The position numbers and the translations under genes are program-made. A stretch of 64,000 nt of DNA, taken from contig CAYPXF010000001.1 in the NCBI GenBank assembly GCA_964415025.1, forward strand, positions 9,390-73,389, written 5' to 3'. The notes beneath the pieces are model-generated. The model made no database searches. It was given only the letters and a program-made list of their open reading frames with translations, and was not told the DNA's origin. The DNA comes from an uncultured Gammaproteobacteria bacterium. Its GTDB lineage: Bacteria; Patescibacteriota; Patescibacteriia; UBA10025; JAHIVO01. Positions 14,790 to 35,713 of this stretch are shown piece by piece (positions within the stretch are counted from its first letter, which is position 1; each line of letters opens with the position of its first letter).

Positions 14790-15503
14790 TCAATAACTTC
14801 TGAATCTGATTTGTATGAGCGTGATAAACATAGAAATAATATTTTGAGCTAATTTGAACGGAGAACCGAGCGCCATTGAATCACTGCTGCTGTCTACCCA
14901 CACGGTGGGCACTTCTATAATATGATAGCCGCGCTTTTTCAGGGCGTACAGCAATTCCACATCAAAGGCCATATTATGGACGCGGAGCGTTGATAAGACA
15001 TCTGTAACCACTTCTCGTTTGAATATCTTGGCGCCGCACTGGGTATCAGCATAGGGCATCCAAAACAGTAGTTTCACTAGCGTGATAAAACCGATACTGA
15101 TGACATGGCGTAATGTGCTTCTATTCTTGATTACTGATCCTTTTTTCCAGCGCGAAGCAATCGCCCCGTCAGCTGATTTCCCCGCTTGATATACCCTGGC
15201 AAATTCAGCCGGACTGGTCGAGGCATCTGCATCCACAAACCCGACATAGTCCCCACGCGCCATGCCAAAGCCCTGATGCACAGCTCCGCCCTTACCAATT
15301 GGCTGCGGAATATTTTTATAGTAAACAATCCCTGGATACTGTTTGGCAAAAGCCTCGACTACCTCGATCGTATTGTCCCGACAACCGTTTAATATAACTA
15401 TGAATTCTGTGTTATGCTGGGAAAAATATTCAGTATATTGGGCTAGGGTTGCGCCAATCCGGTCTTGCTCATTATACGCCGGAATTACTATAGATAAGTG
15501 CAT
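14790..15503 (-). CDS. Glycosyltransferase family 2, polyprenyl-phosphate glycosyltransferase (GtrB/DPM1-like)
   Basis: Starts MHLSIVIPAYNEQDRIGATL and has DADASTSPAEF (DxD region). Confidence 0.8.
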   Translation of the reverse strand: MHLSIVIPAYNEQDRIGATLAQYTEYFSQHNTEFIVILNGCRDNTIEVVEAFAKQYPGIVYYKNIPQPIGKGGAVHQGFGMARGDYVGFVDADASTSPAEFARVYQAGKSADGAIASRWKKGSVIKNRSTLRHVISIGFITLVKLLFWMPYADTQCGAKIFKREVVTDVLSTLRVHNMAFDVELLYALKKRGYHIIEVPTVWVDSSSDSMALGSPFKLAQNIISMFITLIQIRFRSY

Positions 15504-15561: not shown

Positions 15562-16011
15562 TCACCTTTTAAACGTCCAGTATTTGTTGCCAAAATAATT
15601 ACTAAACAGGACAATCAAAATTGCTGATATTTTAGCGAAAAAATCCTCATATAATCCAAATAATGTTTCTAATCTGGTAAACTCGATTATGCTGTAGGTA
15701 ATACCGAGATTTATTAAATAATTTATCGCGCTTACGGTAACAAATTTTACATATTCACTCCTGGCTTGTCCACTATTCCAGCGTCGGAACGTCCATAATT
15801 TATTAAAAATAAAGTTACTGAAAATAGCTAAAAACACGCTGATGGCCGTAGCGTACAGATAATACATACCAGCCGCGCGCGTGAGTAACGTATACGTAGT
15901 AAAATCAACTATGGCGCCGCTCACACCTACTATGCTGAATTTTGCGAATTCATATACCACGGGCTTATTGCTGGCTATGGCCTGAATTTTATTCAACGAC
16001 TGTTTAATCAT
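15562..16011 (-). CDS. GtrA-family membrane protein (polysaccharide synthesis / flippase-like)
   Basis: 149 aa with 4 TM segments. FAKFSIVGVSGAIVDFTTYTLL...NFIFNKLWTF is the GtrA signature. Its start ATG overlaps the stop of the upstream protease (ATGA). Confidence 0.75.
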   Translation of the reverse strand: MIKQSLNKIQAIASNKPVVYEFAKFSIVGVSGAIVDFTTYTLLTRAAGMYYLYATAISVFLAIFSNFIFNKLWTFRRWNSGQARSEYVKFVTVSAINYLINLGITYSIIEFTRLETLFGLYEDFFAKISAILIVLFSNYFGNKYWTFKR

Positions 16012-18152
16012 CGTATAGTCGCCACATTAACCCCGCCCCGGAACGTCTCGGCATAGGCGAAAAAGTGCGACTGCAGCTGGCCCTGGTAATTAAATACCCT
16101 GACATGCGGACCGCCGGTAAATCCGGCACCCGCGATAATCTCCGCGGTCCCGTCTCCGTCTAAGTCTCCTGCTGCTACGTTCACCCCGCCCCGGAACGTC
16201 TCGGCATAGGCGAAAAAGTGCGACTGCAGCTGGCCCTGGTAATTAAATACCCTGACATGCGGACCGCCGGTAAATCCGGCACCCGCGATAATCTCCGCGG
16301 TCCCGTCTCCGTCTAAGTCTCCTGCTGCTACGTTCACCCCGCCCCGGAACGTCTCGGCATAGGCGAATAATTCTGTTTGTTCATTGCCATATATATCAAA
16401 CACTCTAATATGCGGACCACCGCCATTGCCGGCTCCGGTGATTATTTCATCAATACCGTCGCCGTCGACATCGCCGGCCGCCACGTGGACTCCGCCGCGG
16501 AATGTCTCGGCATAGGCAAAGAACTGACTAATGACGCTGCCGTCCTGTTTAAATACTCTGACCTGCGGACCACCGCCATTGCCGGCTCCGGTGATTATTT
16601 CATCAATACCATCGCCGTCGACATCGCCGGCCGCCACGTGGACTCCGCCGCGGAATGATTCTCCATAAGCAAAAAATTGGCTGATCACCTCTCCGTTTGT
16701 CCTGAATAACCGAACCTGCGGCCCGCCAGTATCACCTGCGCCGGTGATAATCTCGTGAAAGCCATTCCCGTCAGTATCACCAGAGGCAACATATACCCCT
16801 CCCCGGAATTGTTCGCCATAAGCGAAAAAGTGCGACTGGAGTTCACCGTACAGATCAAACTGCCTGACATGAGGCCCGCCGGTATATCCCGCACCGACGA
16901 CAATATTTTCTGACGCTGGAATTAAATTGCCAAATACAGCGCCGATATTGATCCGTCCTGCTCCCAGTCCAGCTTCTGAAACAGCAGCAGCGTGGGATTT
17001 TAGCATTTGTTCGATTTGCGCATTAGTAAGGAGCGGGTTATGCGCTTTTATCAGTGCGGCAGAACCGGCTACCACCGGTGTCGCCAGCGACGTTCCTGAC
17101 CAGCCACTGGCATAATACGATTCGAGGCTTTGGTCCGGCGCATAGACTATAGTTGACAGGTAGCTTGTCGCTGGTGCGGCAATATCTACGCATGTATCGC
17201 CGTAATTTGAGGCATTGCTTATTTGGCTGTTAGCGTATGTTTTGAAACGGGCGTCATTCTGATCAGTTCCGCCAACACCAATCACATTGTCGTTGCACAC
17301 CGGGTAGCGGGGCTGTTGGTCTAGATTTATATTGTTATTCCCGGCGGCGGCAAAAATCATGACACCGGCCGCGGTAGCTTCATTAATAATTTGCGCTAAT
17401 ACGGTGTCAGTCTCATTGCCGACAAAACTTAGATTAATAATATCCGCTCCATTGCGCATGGCATACCGTACCCCGGCAGCAATATCACCAGTATCTCCCA
17501 TGCCCGCGTCATTCAGCACCCGAACGCTCATCATGCGTACGGTCCAATTCATGCCAGTTATGCCTTTGTTATTATTGCCCTTGGCCCCGGCAATACCGGC
17601 CACGACGCTCCCGTGATGCACTGCTGCGGCAGTCCATGATCCGCTGAACTGCGGCTGGGGGTCGTTTTGGTCACCGACAAAATCCCAGCCATAATAATCG
17701 TCTACATACCCATTTGCGTCATCGTCTATGCTATTGTTCGGTATTTCATCAGTATTATGCCAAATATTTTGCTGGAGGTCCGGATGGTCTAGATCAATAC
17801 CAGTATCCAGCACCGCTATGACAATACCGTCATCACCAGTGGTGGTATCCCATGCTTGCGGGGCATTAACTTTTTCTAAATACCACTGGTTTTGGTAATA
17901 GGTATCACCTGGCACAACTGCTAACTCGTAAGTGCGGTTTTCCCCTGCGTAGTCTACAACAGGATCAGCATTTAGACGCTGGAGCAATGCGCCAGTGTCT
18001 TCGTGTGAACCGAGCCGTACCGTATGAAATGTTTCCTGATGCTTTAGTTTGACGACAATGCTGTTTCCTTTTGGCGGGCTAGCCACCGCTGGCTGTCCCA
18101 GCAGCAGTCCGCACGCGATTACTGGTAGTAGTACAGTGGCTAATACTTTCAT
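16008..18152 (-). CDS. Secreted subtilisin-like serine protease (peptidase S8) with C-terminal FG-GAP/VCBS-type 51-aa repeats
   Basis: Signal peptide MKVLATVLLPVIACGLLLGQPAVA. The catalytic triad contexts are VLDTGID (Asp), HGSVVAGIAGA (His) and GTSLATPVVAGSAAL (Ser). There are about 6 repeats of FFAYAETFRGGVxVAAGDxDGDG..EIIxGAG.GGP.VRVF. Confidence 0.85.
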   Translation of the reverse strand: MKVLATVLLPVIACGLLLGQPAVASPPKGNSIVVKLKHQETFHTVRLGSHEDTGALLQRLNADPVVDYAGENRTYELAVVPGDTYYQNQWYLEKVNAPQAWDTTTGDDGIVIAVLDTGIDLDHPDLQQNIWHNTDEIPNNSIDDDANGYVDDYYGWDFVGDQNDPQPQFSGSWTAAAVHHGSVVAGIAGAKGNNNKGITGMNWTVRMMSVRVLNDAGMGDTGDIAAGVRYAMRNGADIINLSFVGNETDTVLAQIINEATAAGVMIFAAAGNNNINLDQQPRYPVCNDNVIGVGGTDQNDARFKTYANSQISNASNYGDTCVDIAAPATSYLSTIVYAPDQSLESYYASGWSGTSLATPVVAGSAALIKAHNPLLTNAQIEQMLKSHAAAVSEAGLGAGRINIGAVFGNLIPASENIVVGAGYTGGPHVRQFDLYGELQSHFFAYGEQFRGGVYVASGDTDGNGFHEIITGAGDTGGPQVRLFRTNGEVISQFFAYGESFRGGVHVAAGDVDGDGIDEIITGAGNGGGPQVRVFKQDGSVISQFFAYAETFRGGVHVAAGDVDGDGIDEIITGAGNGGGPHIRVFDIYGNEQTELFAYAETFRGGVNVAAGDLDGDGTAEIIAGAGFTGGPHVRVFNYQGQLQSHFFAYAETFRGGVNVAAGDLDGDGTAEIIAGAGFTGGPHVRVFNYQGQLQSHFFAYAETFRGGVNVATIR
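16031..16367. repeat. Tandem 153-bp direct repeat. Two units are 100% identical (16031-16183 and 16184-16336) and a 31-bp third partial copy follows. The repeat encodes the last FG-GAP units of the protease.
   Basis: Direct reading of the sequence. The period is 153 bp (51 codons). Identity breaks at 16368 into older, diverged units. Confidence 0.9.
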
Positions 18153-18163
18153 ATAGGTGTTCC

Positions 18164-19405
18164 TTATTGGCTGGTCAGCGTGAGCAATGTTTGCTCTGTA
18201 GCGCCATCACGCACATAGGTAACAGTCACCTGACTGCCCGGTGTGTATTGTTTAAGTATGATGTCCAGCGATACGTCATTAGTAATGGCAGTATCGTCAA
18301 TCGCTGTAATTATGTCACCGGCCTGTAAATCAGATCCAGCCGCCGGACTGCCGGGGATAATCGCCTCCTGATCAGCCGTAACCGCACTGATTAATGCGCC
18401 ATTTAATATACCGTACGTCTGTTCGCCCAGGCCGATTACGTCATCGAGTAAAACATAACGAACACCAAACTGCGGTCGCAGCAGGTCACTGTCTGTTAAT
18501 ATGTTCTGTAATATCGGGCGGATATGGTACAGCGGCAATACCGTACTGTTCATCTCACCGGCGCTTATCCCGATGATCTCTCCTTCAGCGGTCACTACCA
18601 GTGATCCGGGCATTATCAAATTTGCACTGTCTAATAACAGCCGTTCGCTGAACTGCTCGCTCGATCGCTGCAATGATGCAGTGTCAGTAACAGGATGATA
18701 ATCAGTGTCTACGGCTGTTGCTGGAGTAACTATTACCTGCTGCTGTTGGCCGCTTTTATTGACTGCGTAGACAGCCGCCGGCGCGCTCGTATCCTCTGCT
18801 GAAGCAATCTGAACGGTTGAGAGATTTGCGGCATCGATTTTCATAAAAATCATGCCGGTAGCCGGATCAGAACGCAGGGCGATAGTTTGGTACAGTCCTC
18901 CGTCATGCACCAACACATGGTACGTGCCGGACGTGTCCAGTGCTGCGGATGTCACTAAATACCCGTCCTGTGTCAGCACAAAAGCAGTGCCAAGCGCTTC
19001 TGCGGCAATATGTGATTCTGCTGCTGTGGTAATGTTTCGTTCGCTAAATATGAGCGCCATGGACGGCGCGGTAGCTATAACTTGTCGGGGAATTTCCTGT
19101 GCCTCCTGCTGCTGACGTACTGGAGTGACGGTAATGCCGTTACCGTCGTGATTAAGCGTGATTATGCCCAGCTCGTTTAAAAAAGGAATGTCAGCACCAT
19201 AGGCAAAGAGCAATAATAATCCTAAAATACCGCCAATCACTCCAAACAGGGCGGCAACTATGACAGTGACAATCCTGCCGCCAGCTAATTGCTGACGAGG
19301 TTTTTCAATCGTGGCTAATTCCTCTTTATAAAGAGAGTTAATCTCTTCATCTTTTTGATACTTTTGCTGGGCTTTTGGTGAAGTGGGGCTTGTTTTTGAT
19401 TTCAT
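18164..19405 (-). CDS. Membrane-anchored HtrA/DegP-like protein with a C-terminal PDZ domain. It is possibly catalytically inactive.
   Basis: N-terminal cytoplasmic tail plus one TM helix. The central region aligns by eye to the DegP protease domain, but the triad positions read TSAALD (His missing), GMIFMKI (Asp missing) and MPGSLVV (Ser shifted). The C-terminal PDZ region (GxxxGDIITAIDDTAI) is intact. Confidence 0.5.
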   Translation of the reverse strand: MKSKTSPTSPKAQQKYQKDEEINSLYKEELATIEKPRQQLAGGRIVTVIVAALFGVIGGILGLLLLFAYGADIPFLNELGIITLNHDGNGITVTPVRQQQEAQEIPRQVIATAPSMALIFSERNITTAAESHIAAEALGTAFVLTQDGYLVTSAALDTSGTYHVLVHDGGLYQTIALRSDPATGMIFMKIDAANLSTVQIASAEDTSAPAAVYAVNKSGQQQQVIVTPATAVDTDYHPVTDTASLQRSSEQFSERLLLDSANLIMPGSLVVTAEGEIIGISAGEMNSTVLPLYHIRPILQNILTDSDLLRPQFGVRYVLLDDVIGLGEQTYGILNGALISAVTADQEAIIPGSPAAGSDLQAGDIITAIDDTAITNDVSLDIILKQYTPGSQVTVTYVRDGATEQTLLTLTSQ

Positions 19406-33686: not shown

Positions 33687-35135
33687 CTAGGCAGCTGTCT
33701 TTGCGCTCAAAACAACCCACGGTGTCTTGAGCAGTATTTGGAAATCAAGTTTAGGTGACCAATTCTCTATGTAGTATATGTCAAGTTTGGCCTCATCTTC
33801 GAAGTGTAAATCGGAACGGCCGGACACCTGTGCCAACCCCGTCATGCCAGGCTTAATAGTTAAGAGTGTCTGATGCCAGCGCTCATACTTAGATACTTCC
33901 TCTGGCTCATGCGGTCGGGGGCCAACTAAACTCATCTCGCCCTTGAGCACATTGATGAGTTGGGGAAATTCATCGAGGCTTGTTTTCCGCAGTATTCTCC
34001 CGACCCGAGTGATGCGTGGGTCGTCCTTTATCTTGAATAAGGGGCCGTCAGATCGTTCATTATAACGTAATAAATCTTTTTTTAATTGCTGTGCGTTTCT
34101 AACCATTGATCTGAACTTGTACAGCGTAAACCGTTGTCCCCGTTCACCGACACGCTCCAGCCGGGCAAACACGCCACCTTGCGAATCGACTACAATGCAC
34201 ACCGCGACAATCATAAATACTGGTGACAGCATGATGAGCAGTAACAACGACAAGGTAAAGTCAAGTCCGCGTTTAAATATCCTGCCCCACCCGTCTAGCT
34301 TCGTACGCTGGACCTCGATAATCGGGATGCCCGCTATCATATTAATTCTAATATGGGTCGGCTGAACCTCAAATAAATCAGTCGCGTATTTGAAGGTAAT
34401 GTGGTAATCAGCGCAGGCGTTGCGTATGGCGATGACCTGCTCTTTTGGCAGGTGGGCATCGGTCTGAATTATTTCGTCAATTGTTTCTGTATTAATTTTT
34501 TTTATGAACTCATGCTGCGCAGTTTCGTCAAACTGATCATAGTGATCAATAATTTTATATCCCTGTGAGGGATATTTATGGATGTGCTTAATGATATCTT
34601 CAGTGGTCTTGTTGCTGCCAATGATAACTACATTATGCAATCCTGTGCCCTTTTTCAGCAAAGCTCGCTGAATGCCGCGTACGATTAAACGGCCAATGCT
34701 GACCATGAATATAGAAAATATCCAGCCAAAAATGACGATAAACCTGGATGAAAACAATTCACGCTGAAAAAATATTATAATAATGACCAAAGCAATCGCC
34801 GCGGTACAAGCGACAAATACCGTGGTAATCTCATCGATCAGCCGTCGCGTGCTTTTTATGGCATAGAGGCCGGACAAGGCAAATATTATTATAAATACAA
34901 ACGGAATAATAAATAGTACCTGCATATAGTCACGCAAGACTATCTCCGTAACAATCGGCTTAATGTCCGTAAAAAAGGGCACAAAGCGCAATTGGTAAGC
35001 AAAAATACCCGCACAAATAACCATGAAGTAATCAACGGGTATTAATATCGCACTGAAAATTAATTCAGACTTCTTCATATAATAGAGGTGGTAAGCTCCA
35101 GCAGGATCATAAGCCGAATTCTGTCCCGCCCGCAC
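33687..35135 (-). CDS. Polyprenyl glycosylphosphotransferase (WbaP/WcaJ-type priming sugar transferase)
   Basis: 5 N-terminal TM helices and a C-terminal bacterial sugar-transferase domain: KRGLDFTLSLLLLIMLSPVFMIVAVCI...YKFRSM...DEFPQLINVLKGEMSLVGPRP. Confidence 0.85.
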   Translation of the reverse strand: MRAGQNSAYDPAGAYHLYYMKKSELIFSAILIPVDYFMVICAGIFAYQLRFVPFFTDIKPIVTEIVLRDYMQVLFIIPFVFIIIFALSGLYAIKSTRRLIDEITTVFVACTAAIALVIIIIFFQRELFSSRFIVIFGWIFSIFMVSIGRLIVRGIQRALLKKGTGLHNVVIIGSNKTTEDIIKHIHKYPSQGYKIIDHYDQFDETAQHEFIKKINTETIDEIIQTDAHLPKEQVIAIRNACADYHITFKYATDLFEVQPTHIRINMIAGIPIIEVQRTKLDGWGRIFKRGLDFTLSLLLLIMLSPVFMIVAVCIVVDSQGGVFARLERVGERGQRFTLYKFRSMVRNAQQLKKDLLRYNERSDGPLFKIKDDPRITRVGRILRKTSLDEFPQLINVLKGEMSLVGPRPHEPEEVSKYERWHQTLLTIKPGMTGLAQVSGRSDLHFEDEAKLDIYYIENWSPKLDFQILLKTPWVVLSAKTAA

Positions 35136-35713
35136 CGTCAGACGGTGAAGGGGTAATGGTTATCTATCTTGTCCTGATATTGCTATCAGGATCATGCAAC
35201 CAACCCACCCCCACGCCTTTTATGTACGCCTTTATTACAGTTTTTTCTGTGAATGATGATGGCATCAAGCAAAACAGCAGTTTATATGCTCTATAATAGT
35301 ACACAAAAGGTGTGGGGGTCTACTTGGTCTTGCACCGGATAGGGTTTTTCACGCCAGCATGTCACCATACTGACCTGTGAGCTCTTACCTCACCGCTTTT
35401 CACCTTTACCCCCACACTGATACTTTTATTACTAGTATAATCGATTACTTGAACAAGAGTATCAGTGTGGGGGCAGTATCGTCTCTGTGACACTTTCCCT
35501 AGAATTCTGCTTTTTAAAAGGCTATAGCGCTCTTAAAAAATACGTTACTTCTGGTCGCATTTCGCGACTATCCTTGGCATCTTTGTCATAAAACAAAGAA
35601 GGGTGTTCGGACTTTCCTCTCCCCACACCAATACTTTCATTTATCGCTACTATCGGGCGTTGAAACGATAATATTGGTGTGGGGAGCAACCATCTCACCT
35701 CCTGGAGCTTACT
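35087..35713 (-). ncRNA. rnpB: RNase P RNA (bacterial type A-like), unusually long (~625 nt) because of extended P3 and extra inserted helices
   Basis: Conserved blocks read on the minus strand. AGAGGAAAGUCCG (plus 35608-35620) is the P4 5' strand. GGUAAAGGUGAAAAGCGGUGAGGUAAGAGCUCACAG (plus 35375-35410) is the P10-P12 block. GUGAAAAACCCUAUCCGGUGCAAGACCAAGUAG (plus 35320-35352) is the P13 block. ACAGAAUUCGGCUUAU (plus 35109-35124) is the P4 3' strand, with a compensatory change that preserves P4 (AAG-U-CCGAA pairs with UUCGGCUU). The closing helix GUAAGCUCCAG/CUGGAGCUUAC lies at 35703-35713 and 35087-35097. Confidence 0.8.

Follow-up and report, generated by a model that had tools for sequence, protein, structure and literature searches.

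Near-identical adjacent blades in the six-bladed FG-GAP propeller of a predicted surface protease from Patescibacteria

The analysed stretch of DNA (64,000 nucleotides, here called the window) carries a gene for a 714-aa S8 family serine protease. Structural modelling indicates that the C-terminal 300 residues of this protein are a closed six-bladed β-propeller of the FG-GAP/VCBS type, and its last two blades share a perfect nucleotide repeat. We consider it probable that this repeat arose from within-gene recombination, with recurrent homogenisation of adjacent blades while the blade count is kept at six. Blade homogenisation is an ordinary and already described behaviour of repeat domains. 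The biological weight of the finding is small; it gives one more example of repeat proteins evolving in concert and adds a Patescibacteria protease to the locally repetitive propellers.

The protease, its domains and its gene neighbourhood

The gene and its neighbours were annotated as follows.

18164–19405, minus strand: HtrA-like/PDZ gene, conserved upstream neighbour (Pfam Trypsin_2 and PDZ, synteny)
16008–18152, minus strand: S8 serine protease gene, 714-aa product with C-terminal six-bladed FG-GAP propeller (ORF, Pfam S8 and FG-GAP, homologs, AF2)
18078–18152, minus strand: N-terminal signal peptide, about aa 1-25, MKVLATVLLPVIACGLLLGQPAVAS (read from the sequence, putative cleavage site)
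16980–17831, minus strand: subtilase catalytic domain, aa 108-391, with D116/H180/N272/S355 (Pfam PF00082)
16008–16011, minus strand: ATGA stop/start overlap of the protease gene and gtrA (sequence)
15562–16011, minus strand: gtrA-like membrane protein gene, downstream and translationally coupled (Pfam GtrA_DPMS_TM, 93 bits; conserved synteny)
14790–15503, minus strand: GT2 glycosyltransferase gene of the conserved cluster (Pfam Glycos_transf_2, synteny)

Profile, catalytic residues and modelled fold all place the protein in Peptidase S8, and proteolysis is its predicted activity. The PF00082 profile scored 164.2 bits (cutoff 21.8) over aa 108-391, and the triad was intact in the order Asp-His-Ser (D116 in LDTG, H180 in HHGS, S355 in GTSLA) together with the oxyanion residue N272 (AGNN); these four residues were invariant in a 104-sequence alignment. 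PDB subtilases matched the protease down to an E value of 4.5e-42 (phmmer, best 3vv3). The full-length AF2 model (pLDDT 93) had the subtilisin α/β fold, with deseasin MCP-01 (3vv3) as the best Foldseek match at a TM of 0.87 and thermitase at 0.93. The Foldseek search of this full-length model returned subtilases only, and the propeller was compared through a domain-only model. The protein had first been described as a subtilase with FG-GAP repeats, and this was borne out by the S8 match and by matches to PF01839 (FG-GAP, 82 bits, cutoff 22.1) and PF13517 (FG-GAP_3, 69 bits, cutoff 26.9). No NCBIfam model reached its cutoff, so the protein takes the generic name “S8 family serine peptidase.” At E ≤ 1e-10 we found 2087 homologs, and the named ones among the 120 listed were mostly from Patescibacteria.

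With secreted subtilases such as deseasin MCP-01 (3vv3), thermitase and kexin/furin (P-domain), the protease shares the standard S8 fold, the D-H-S triad and a C-terminal non-catalytic β-domain, which in such enzymes presumably handles substrate or surface binding. Unlike in those enzymes, the accessory domain here is an FG-GAP propeller, and we infer that it would serve the protease as a ligand- or substrate-binding module at the cell surface. No solved S8-propeller fusion was found in the PDB by sequence or Foldseek search. The combination of an S8 domain with a six-bladed FG-GAP propeller is widespread in Patescibacteria, where this uncharacterised, predicted surface protease is very common.

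The protease is predicted to be Sec-exported. In the full-length model its N-terminus formed a helix (aa 2-17) followed by a low-confidence linker (aa 19-27). A lipoprotein signal was rejected: VIAC resembles a lipobox, but the alignment consensus does not retain its Cys. An alternative genetic code was also rejected: TGA is a stop here, and the inspected relatives finish at the same conserved C-terminus.

The stop codon of the protease gene does overlap the ATG of gtrA, in the ATGA at 16008-16011, as the preliminary description had stated. The tight coupling with gtrA is ancestral. It was kept in relatives only about 54% identical; the same ATGA occurred at loci L001 and L002, gene coordinates gave a 4-nt overlap at L008 and L009, and a 6-nt gap was found at L005-L007. 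Both genes belong to a conserved envelope-related cluster of this lineage, which comprises lepA, bPH, DUF5656, the HtrA-like/PDZ gene, the S8-propeller gene, gtrA, GT2 and epimerases. Alignment of the HtrA-like/PDZ protein to a DegP-like chain showed that its His and Ser positions are substituted, and it is probably non-catalytic.

The six-bladed propeller and its closing strand

The propeller features were as follows.

16011–16907, minus strand: six FG-GAP blades, aa 416-714
16755–16907, minus strand: blade 1
16602–16754, minus strand: blade 2
16449–16601, minus strand: blade 3
16296–16448, minus strand: blade 4
16143–16295, minus strand: blade 5
16011–16142, minus strand: blade 6
16011–16037, minus strand: conserved C-terminal strand GGVNVATIR, the 24th β-strand (homolog C-termini, AF2 strand, codon differences)

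Read in blade phase, the repeat region as assembled consists of exactly six units of 51 aa that begin at aa 416, with a sixth unit of 44 aa. It had been assigned to the C-terminal third of the protein, but the actual span of aa 416-714 is about 42% of the length. The AF2 model of the propeller only (pTM 0.93, pLDDT 95.8) had 24 strands, and its four-stranded blades closed into a toroid. Loops of the DxDxDG type were read from the sequence after blades 1-5 (DTDGNG once, DVDGDG twice and DLDGDG twice), and these five DxDGxG loops linking the blades probably bind Ca2+. The best Foldseek sequence/3Di matches of the propeller were integrin αV (8xfo) and AAL2 (4tqm). With the integrin α-subunit β-propeller and the fungal FG-GAP lectins (PVL, AAL2) it shares the FG-GAP family PF01839 and the DxDxDG-type loops.

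Six blades are the norm of the family. Among the 120 best homologs 101 had this number, as did 149 of 181 complete arrays, and more than six occurred in none of 192 proteins. A seven-bladed propeller of the integrin-α type was thus rejected, as six units were present in the window protein and in those 149 relatives and seven in none. The same counts and the modelled ring speak against the earlier picture of a variable integrin-like stalk: because the blades form a ring and not a stalk, stalk-like tuning of “reach” by blade number is impossible.

The final repeat had also been taken to be cut off mid-motif at the start of gtrA. The protein ends in FRGGVNVATIR followed directly by TGA, and GGVNVATIR is the native terminal strand of blade 6, which closes the propeller. 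Approximately 96 of 120 homologs finish 2-8 residues past this GGVxVA strand, in tails such as GGVNVAAIR, GGVNVASIK and GGVFVSTIR. The strand was modelled at high pLDDT at aa 708-713 of the full-length model and at E304-309 of the domain-only model. In the last strand, the codons for VNVA disagree with those of the adjacent unit at all 4 synonymous sites, and the strand is therefore old. Seemingly “truncated last repeats” in propellers can thus be the closing strand, and the repeat phase should first be checked against structure.

Identical blades and their probable origin

Two repeated tracts were found in the blades.

16030–16367, minus strand: tract A, perfect period-153 tract of 338 nt, 2.2 copies (Tandem Repeats Finder, 100% matches)
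16411–16657, minus strand: tract B, older sub-unit patch, 94 nt that recur 153 nt further on except for 1 mismatch (uninterrupted runs of 46 and 47 nt)

Each nucleotide from 16030 to 16214 equals the one 153 positions further on, and such a match over 185 consecutive positions at a fixed lag cannot be due to chance. The units 16031-16183 and 16184-16336 were therefore correctly described as identical, and so was a third copy continuing for 31 bp (31-32 nt, to 16367). Tract A equates the tail of blade 4 with that of blade 5, and blade 5 with blade 6 up to “GGV.” Between blades 5 and 6, identity was 100% over 41 aa and, at the DNA level, 91% for the whole unit; DNA identity of the pair was 60-68% to blades 1-3 and 67-79% to blade 4, which shares tract A. 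All 61 codon pairs for the same amino acid within the tract were identical, and the next four were all different. No further copy of the 153-bp unit was found in the 64-kb window by blastn. As read from its sequence, the protein is thus a locally repetitive β-propeller, with near-identical consecutive blades flanked by more diverged ones, and the data support the view that the pair of identical units goes back to very recent recombination or slippage.

The mechanism cannot be read from the window alone, because a duplication from five to six blades and a conversion within six blades predict the same tract of 153 + 32 nt. Adjacent blades at least 90% identical were found in 16 of 100 six-blade proteins (among the first 122). 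The terminal two blades were mutual best matches in the window protein (100%), P0124 (97.5%), P0121 (97.5%), P0005 (100%) and P0125 (90%), and against this 90-100% within the terminal pairs of five species, the best blade matches between species reached 72-88%. Blade-position signatures that are valid in the wider family were erased in the window's clade: position-specific blade HMMs classified blades 1, 4, 5 and 6 well in the wider family, but in this clade all interior blades scored as type 2/3, and so they gave no direction as to which of blades 5 and 6 was overwritten.

In tract B, the blade 2/3 junction equals the blade 3/4 junction. Within it 30 of 31 consecutive codons for the same amino acid were identical, compared with about half in the flanks (permutation, 0 of 20000). 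This tract is shorter than one unit and looks like gene conversion.

In the scheme that we favour, a misaligned exchange between adjacent blade units would copy one unit-length onto its neighbour. The exchange route, which we infer at the molecular level, may be gene conversion or unequal crossover/slippage, and the extra 32 nt of tract A would be homology present beforehand at the edge. The event would then be one case of an ongoing concerted evolution of adjacent blades in which the structurally required six blades are preserved.

It is also conceivable, but unlikely, that the ancestor had five blades and that crossover or slippage at 32-nt direct repeats duplicated one 153-bp unit to give six. 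The length of the perfect tract, exactly one unit and 32 nt of flanking identity, is what recombination at short direct repeats should leave behind. Initial counts for several of the closest homologs were 4-5 units, and Pereira & Lupas 2022 (PMC9218822) read such cases as local blade amplification. However, each of the five-blade proteins P0002 and P0004 shares its 90% cluster with a six-blade sibling: P0124 equals P0002 except for the unit that the latter lacks, and P0125 has 14 further residue differences from P0004. Six is therefore the full complement in the window's clade too. Seven-blade proteins were absent from the 192 proteins, though a step from six to seven should be as easy as one from five to six, and duplication of a whole unit cannot account for tract B. 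Five species show a homogenised terminal pair at this position with the count unchanged, so that a single expansion is less likely than homogenisation that preserves the count. Of the earlier proposal of a recent expansion or contraction by slippage or recombination, the recent event is thus upheld by the 185-nt identity, but the one-off expansion is not.

Locally repetitive β-propellers most often have 2 highly similar blades, and they include VCBS and FG-GAP types whose internal blades are up to 100% identical (Pereira & Lupas 2022, PMC9218822). The window protein resembles their VCBS/FG-GAP supercluster in having identical consecutive blades within a more diverged DxDxDG-type propeller (PMC9218822; Pereira & Lupas 2021, PMC8023676). 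The median blade number of the repetitive VCBS propellers is six, and blade-number differences between otherwise identical proteins have been reported (PMC9218822; PMC8023676). The 2022 study reads its cases as amplification and considers neither gene conversion (the term occurs 0 times in its text) nor assembly error; Pereira & Lupas do not mention an S8 fusion or Patescibacteria (“Patescibacteria,” 0 times in the text). Unlike the amplification described there, the window family keeps the norm count and sister species show the pattern at the same position, an indication of homogenisation that preserves the count. Near-identical bacterial blades from recent within-gene events are also known in WRAP proteins, e.g., Nostoc punctiforme Npun_R6612 (Afanasieva et al. 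2019, PMC6805158). Those are WD40 blades that were all amplified at once (globally repetitive), and 14 or more of them make up two propellers, whereas the six-blade FG-GAP ring of the window protein is homogenised only in one pair and one older patch.

Blade counts across assemblies

Comparison with relatives for copy-number variation had been suggested at the outset, and the counts did differ, from 3 to 6 units, but partly between identical flanks and always as losses. Loci L005, L007 and L006 had 100% identical 3-kb flanks and 5, 4 and 3 units, respectively, and L008 and L001 had identical flanks with 6 and 5 units; in both sets the fewest units were on a MEGAHIT “k141” contig. Because the differences are often between otherwise identical sequences, at least some of them are assembly artefacts, and some of the five-blade forms in relatives could be real. 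Blade counts of the S8-propeller family are thus unreliable in short-read metagenome assemblies, where the same strain appears with 3, 4, 5 or 6 units, and this affects surveys reporting a “diversity of blade numbers” among near-identical proteins.

A true variation of blade number between strains or within populations (5 vs 6 etc.), as a variable surface feature analogous to variable-repeat surface proteins, would fit several of these observations. Unit-number differences occurred in six independent 90%-identity clusters. In one of them, MEGAHIT assemblies of two different samples had 6 and 5 units with a perfect repeat of only 116 nt, below the largest k; their flanks were 99.5-99.9% identical, which marks them as different strains. 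Perfect direct repeats of 116-185 nt are good deletion substrates. But the changes were losses only and never went above six, one allele with 0 other amino-acid differences occurred in both count states in five clusters, and a three-blade version would be unable to close a propeller alone, so we regard this reading as distinctly unlikely. Clusters with adjacent blades at most 82% identical never varied (P0049 and P0057, 15 listed members each), which fits artefact and real variation alike. Among cluster representatives, “fewer than six blades” and “near-identical adjacent blades” were not significantly associated by Fisher's test (p = 0.10), and a rank test gave p = 0.005; the within-cluster comparison is stronger evidence than these tests.

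Homogenised blades might also recombine so as to toggle between six and five (or fewer) blades at high frequency, in a conversion-maintained switch of the surface protease from a closed ring to a form that is open or oligomerises. The five clusters in which identical alleles had 5 and 6 units, and the 5-versus-6 pair from one assembler and different samples, would be compatible with this. If true, blade toggling would be a structural on/off switch for the protease, but we consider this improbable.

A variable-number (contingency-type) repeat protein would be made of structurally independent repeats that are free to rise or fall in number, and the window protein departs from this in its closed ring and in a family count never above six in 192 proteins. 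In the group B Streptococcus proteins alpha C and Rib, the repeats are independent rod domains whose number can drift and alter antigenicity. The window protease shares with them long in-frame nucleotide-identical repeats in a secreted bacterial protein, between which recombination is expected, but its repeats are blades of a closed ring and fixed in number.

The window array itself was also considered as a possible miscount. No same-species sequence of the window protein was found in the searched collections, its 90% cluster had one member, JGI metagenome contigs contained no exact match to a 24-mer spanning the 3′ junction, and a locus search of genome contigs with a single protein query gave only two distant loci. 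The concern about assembler miscounts was justified by the relatives with identical flanks, but a collapse in the window, with over two identical units and so seven or more blades in the actual gene, is very improbable. Under-counting and inconsistent counts were seen in relatives' assemblies, and two and three identical units give the same k-mer sets for k up to 185, so such k-mers cannot tell them apart. However, six is already the full complement and the maximum in 192 proteins, many of which have blades too diverged to collapse, and the six-unit sequence gave a confident closed six-bladed model. That the duplication is itself an assembly artefact of a five-bladed gene (graph cycle overrun or strain-variant chimera) is hardly credible: tandem repeats longer than k do form cycles in assembly graphs, but k-mers that extend over 32 nt across the unit-to-unit junction require at least two copies, the family norm is six and not five, and near-identical terminal pairs arise independently in four relatives from other assemblies.

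Architecture and C-terminal end of the protease

The protease is encoded by one open reading frame:

16008..18152, minus strand, S8-propeller gene, 714 aa

Pfam analysis of the 714-aa protein gave Peptidase_S8 at aa 108-391 (164 bits) plus FG-GAP and FG-GAP_3 repeats, and no NCBIfam model attained its cutoff against the protease. The N-terminus carries a hydrophobic signal sequence, with a helix at aa 2-17 in the AF2 model. The catalytic domain is of the standard subtilase type; D116, H180, N272, and S355 were invariant in the alignment of 104 homologs, and the nearest solved structure was deseasin MCP-01 (3vv3; E 4.5e-42, TM 0.87). Read in blade phase from NIVVGAG (aa 416), the C-terminal part contains exactly six units, each with four predicted strands matching EIIxGAG, PHVRVF, SQFFAY, and GGVxVAxGD, and a DxDGxG loop connects each of blades 1-5 with the following blade. 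The AlphaFold model of the propeller domain alone (94 sequences) had a pLDDT of 95.8, a pTM of 0.93, and 24 strands, and the best sequence-aware Foldseek matches were integrin αV and the AAL2 lectin, both FG-GAP proteins. The model and these matches together indicated that the C-terminal domain is predicted to be a closed six-bladed ring of FG-GAP-type blades rather than a stalk, and the variable stalk proposed in the preliminary description was thus not supported. Integrin α has seven blades whereas this propeller has six, and its repeats, unlike those of variable-repeat surface proteins, form a ring.

The protein ends in FRGGVNVATIR, and its TGA overlaps the start codon of the GtrA_DPMS_TM gene (15562..16011) in the sequence ATGA, as already described. 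The accompanying claim that the last unit is cut off was contradicted by homolog C-termini, the model, gtrA coupling in relatives, and codon usage. About 96 of 120 homologs terminate 2-8 residues past the same GGVxVA strand, and the closest ones end in GGVNVAAIR, GGVNVASIK, and GGVFVSTIR, while GGVNVATIR was strand 24 of 24 in the model, with high confidence. Among relatives' loci carrying the gene, ATGA was read at the protease stop and gtrA start in L001 and L002, and gene coordinates gave a 4-nt overlap in L008 and L009 and a 6-nt gap in L005-L007. Just past the perfect tract, the VNVA codons were GTT AAT GTG GCG versus GTG AAC GTA GCA in the neighbouring unit, which differ at 4 of 4 synonymous sites; because a copy truncated only recently would still match its neighbour in these codons, the C-terminal strand is, judged by its codons, old. 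The “mid-motif” truncation is a product of the repeat phase chosen for reading. Blade 6 has no DxDGDG loop because the loop joins blades 1-5 to the next blade, and no blade follows it.

Probable homogenisation of adjacent blades

Tandem Repeats Finder reported a 153-nt unit at 16030-16367 (2.2 copies, 100% matches), nested in a six-unit array of the same period at 16021-16938 that is longer and more diverged. Our own scan showed that every position from 16030 to 16214 (185 positions) was identical to the position 153 nt further on, which bore out the unit coordinates first reported and the 31-bp extent of the third copy. No further copies of the unit were found elsewhere in the 64-kb window. 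Outside the homogenised tracts, same-amino-acid codons of adjacent units were identical in 63 of 125 cases, about half, and the tracts themselves were as follows:

16030-16367, tract A, 61 of 61 same-amino-acid codon pairs identical
16411-16657, tract B, 30 of 31 consecutive codons identical (94 nt, one mismatch)

Tract A alone is silent on mechanism because duplication and conversion both yield at most 153 matching positions per event, and the remaining 32 of its 185 matching positions were therefore already identical beforehand. Tract B (permutation test, 0/20000) runs from the end of one blade into the beginning of the following one, with diverged sequence on both sides, and is shorter than one unit, so whole-unit duplication cannot be its source; its sequence is what gene conversion would leave.

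Of the first 122 proteins examined, 100 had six blades, and in 16 of these 100 adjacent blades were at least 90% identical with the count still six. In five species of the window's clade the last two blades were mutual best matches (100% in the window protein, 97.5% in homologs P0124 and P0121, 100% in P0005, and 90% in P0125), and best blade matches between species there reached just 72-88%. Blade-position signatures were recognisable across the wider family and erased in this clade. Recent recombination in the repeats, as initially suggested, therefore held, and simple expansion was not supported, since homogenisation recurs at a constant six blades and tract B lies below unit length. The recurrence at constant blade number favours gene conversion or balanced unequal exchange, which would homogenise adjacent blades again and again while selection for six blades would keep the count constant, and this most simply accounts for the homogenisation.

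Such “locally repetitive β-propellers” were defined by Pereira and Lupas (2022; PMC9218822); their commonest arrangement is a pair of highly similar blades, identity between internal blades reaches up to 100% in members of the VCBS/FG-GAP lineage, and blade number can differ between otherwise identical proteins (PMC9218822). The window protease is a further example, now in a Patescibacteria S8 fusion.

Blade 1 (16755-16907) had 19/34 and 18/29 identical synonymous codons with the non-adjacent blades 5/6 (16011-16295), versus only 6-10 of about 30 with blades 2-4, and has in common with blades 5/6 an exact CAGTCGCACTTTTTCGC stretch encoding QSHFFA, a resemblance that may go back to an earlier exchange between blades far apart in the array.

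Blade number in relatives and assemblies

The protein database contained 2087 homologs of the protease at E<=1e-10, and those named by source were mostly [quoted passage not shown]. Six blades were present in 101 of the best 120 of these 2087. With cluster members included, the complete arrays (n=181) had six blades in 149 cases, five in 25, four in 5, and three in 2, and more than six were found in 0 of 192 proteins.

No same-species sequence for the window's gene was found in the protein database, its 90% cluster, or JGI metagenome contigs, so the predicted copy-number variation between strains was checked on relatives. In all length-variable 90%-identity clusters with near-identical adjacent blades (P0002, P0004, P0008, P0014, P0031, and P0003), some members were without exactly one of the similar pair, often with 0 other amino-acid differences between shorter and longer forms. 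The P0039 cluster (adjacent-blade identity 90%, 5 members) had no length variation, and P0049, P0057, and P0059 (adjacent blades <=82% identical) had six blades throughout.

Unit numbers in near-identical loci of relatives
L005 / L007 / L006: 5 / 4 / 3 units; flanks 100% identical over 2.3-3 kb per comparison; two repeat-internal alignment columns differ
L008 / L001: 6 / 5 units; flanks 100% identical over 3 kb each side; sole difference one 153-nt gap
L010 / L011: 6 / 5 units; flanks 99.5-99.9% identical; one mismatch in gene

Because their flanks are 100% identical, L005, L006, and L007 evidently represent one strain, and L008 and L001 likewise; in both comparisons the fewest units were on a MEGAHIT “k141” contig. 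Unit counts differed among assemblies, and most of this variation was judged technical, because every change was a loss from six and a protein with three blades is unable to form a closed ring. A real deletion variant is conceivable for L010 / L011, both of which are MEGAHIT assemblies from different samples with a perfect repeat of just 116 nt. The early caution about assembly held, given the 5/4/3 and 6/5 units between identical flanks. Although k-mers up to 185 nt cannot tell two from three copies, a longer array collapsed by the assembler is unlikely in the window, where the six units already make up a full set. Blade numbers from short-read MAGs are untrustworthy for this family.

Gene neighbourhood and other features of the window

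Gene order was compared in the five loci keeping the upstream flank (L001, L002, L005, L008, and L009), whose S8-propeller proteins have about 54% identity to the window's. The conserved order was lepA, bPH, DUF5656, HtrA-like/PDZ, S8-propeller, gtrA, GT2, and epimerases. L010 and L011, of a more distant clade, lack gtrA; there the S8-propeller gene is flanked by a GT4 glycosyltransferase gene on one side and an epimerase gene on the other, and mreB is found upstream. The association with sugar and envelope genes thus extends beyond the gtrA coupling.

The HtrA-like/PDZ gene directly upstream of the protease (18164-19405, minus strand) seemingly lacks catalytic residues; against a DegP-like PDB chain, TSAAL aligns with the His position (TNNHV), and the Ser position is Pro in IMPGS. 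Because these residues are substituted and the neighbour is conserved in five relatives' loci, its product is probably a non-catalytic partner of the protease. Outside the window, homologs P0086, P0094, and P0101 (about 1035-1046 aa) have an MltG/YceG endolytic transglycosylase domain (PF02618) joined to the S8 domain and six blades in the same predicted polypeptide, and these predicted fusions hint that the module acts on the cell wall or envelope.

ARAGORN found no tRNA genes in the window (1-64000). A bacterial RNase P RNA (RF00010, 196 bits) lies at 35094-35705 on the minus strand, and its 612 nt against 367 model positions means about 245 nt of insertions.
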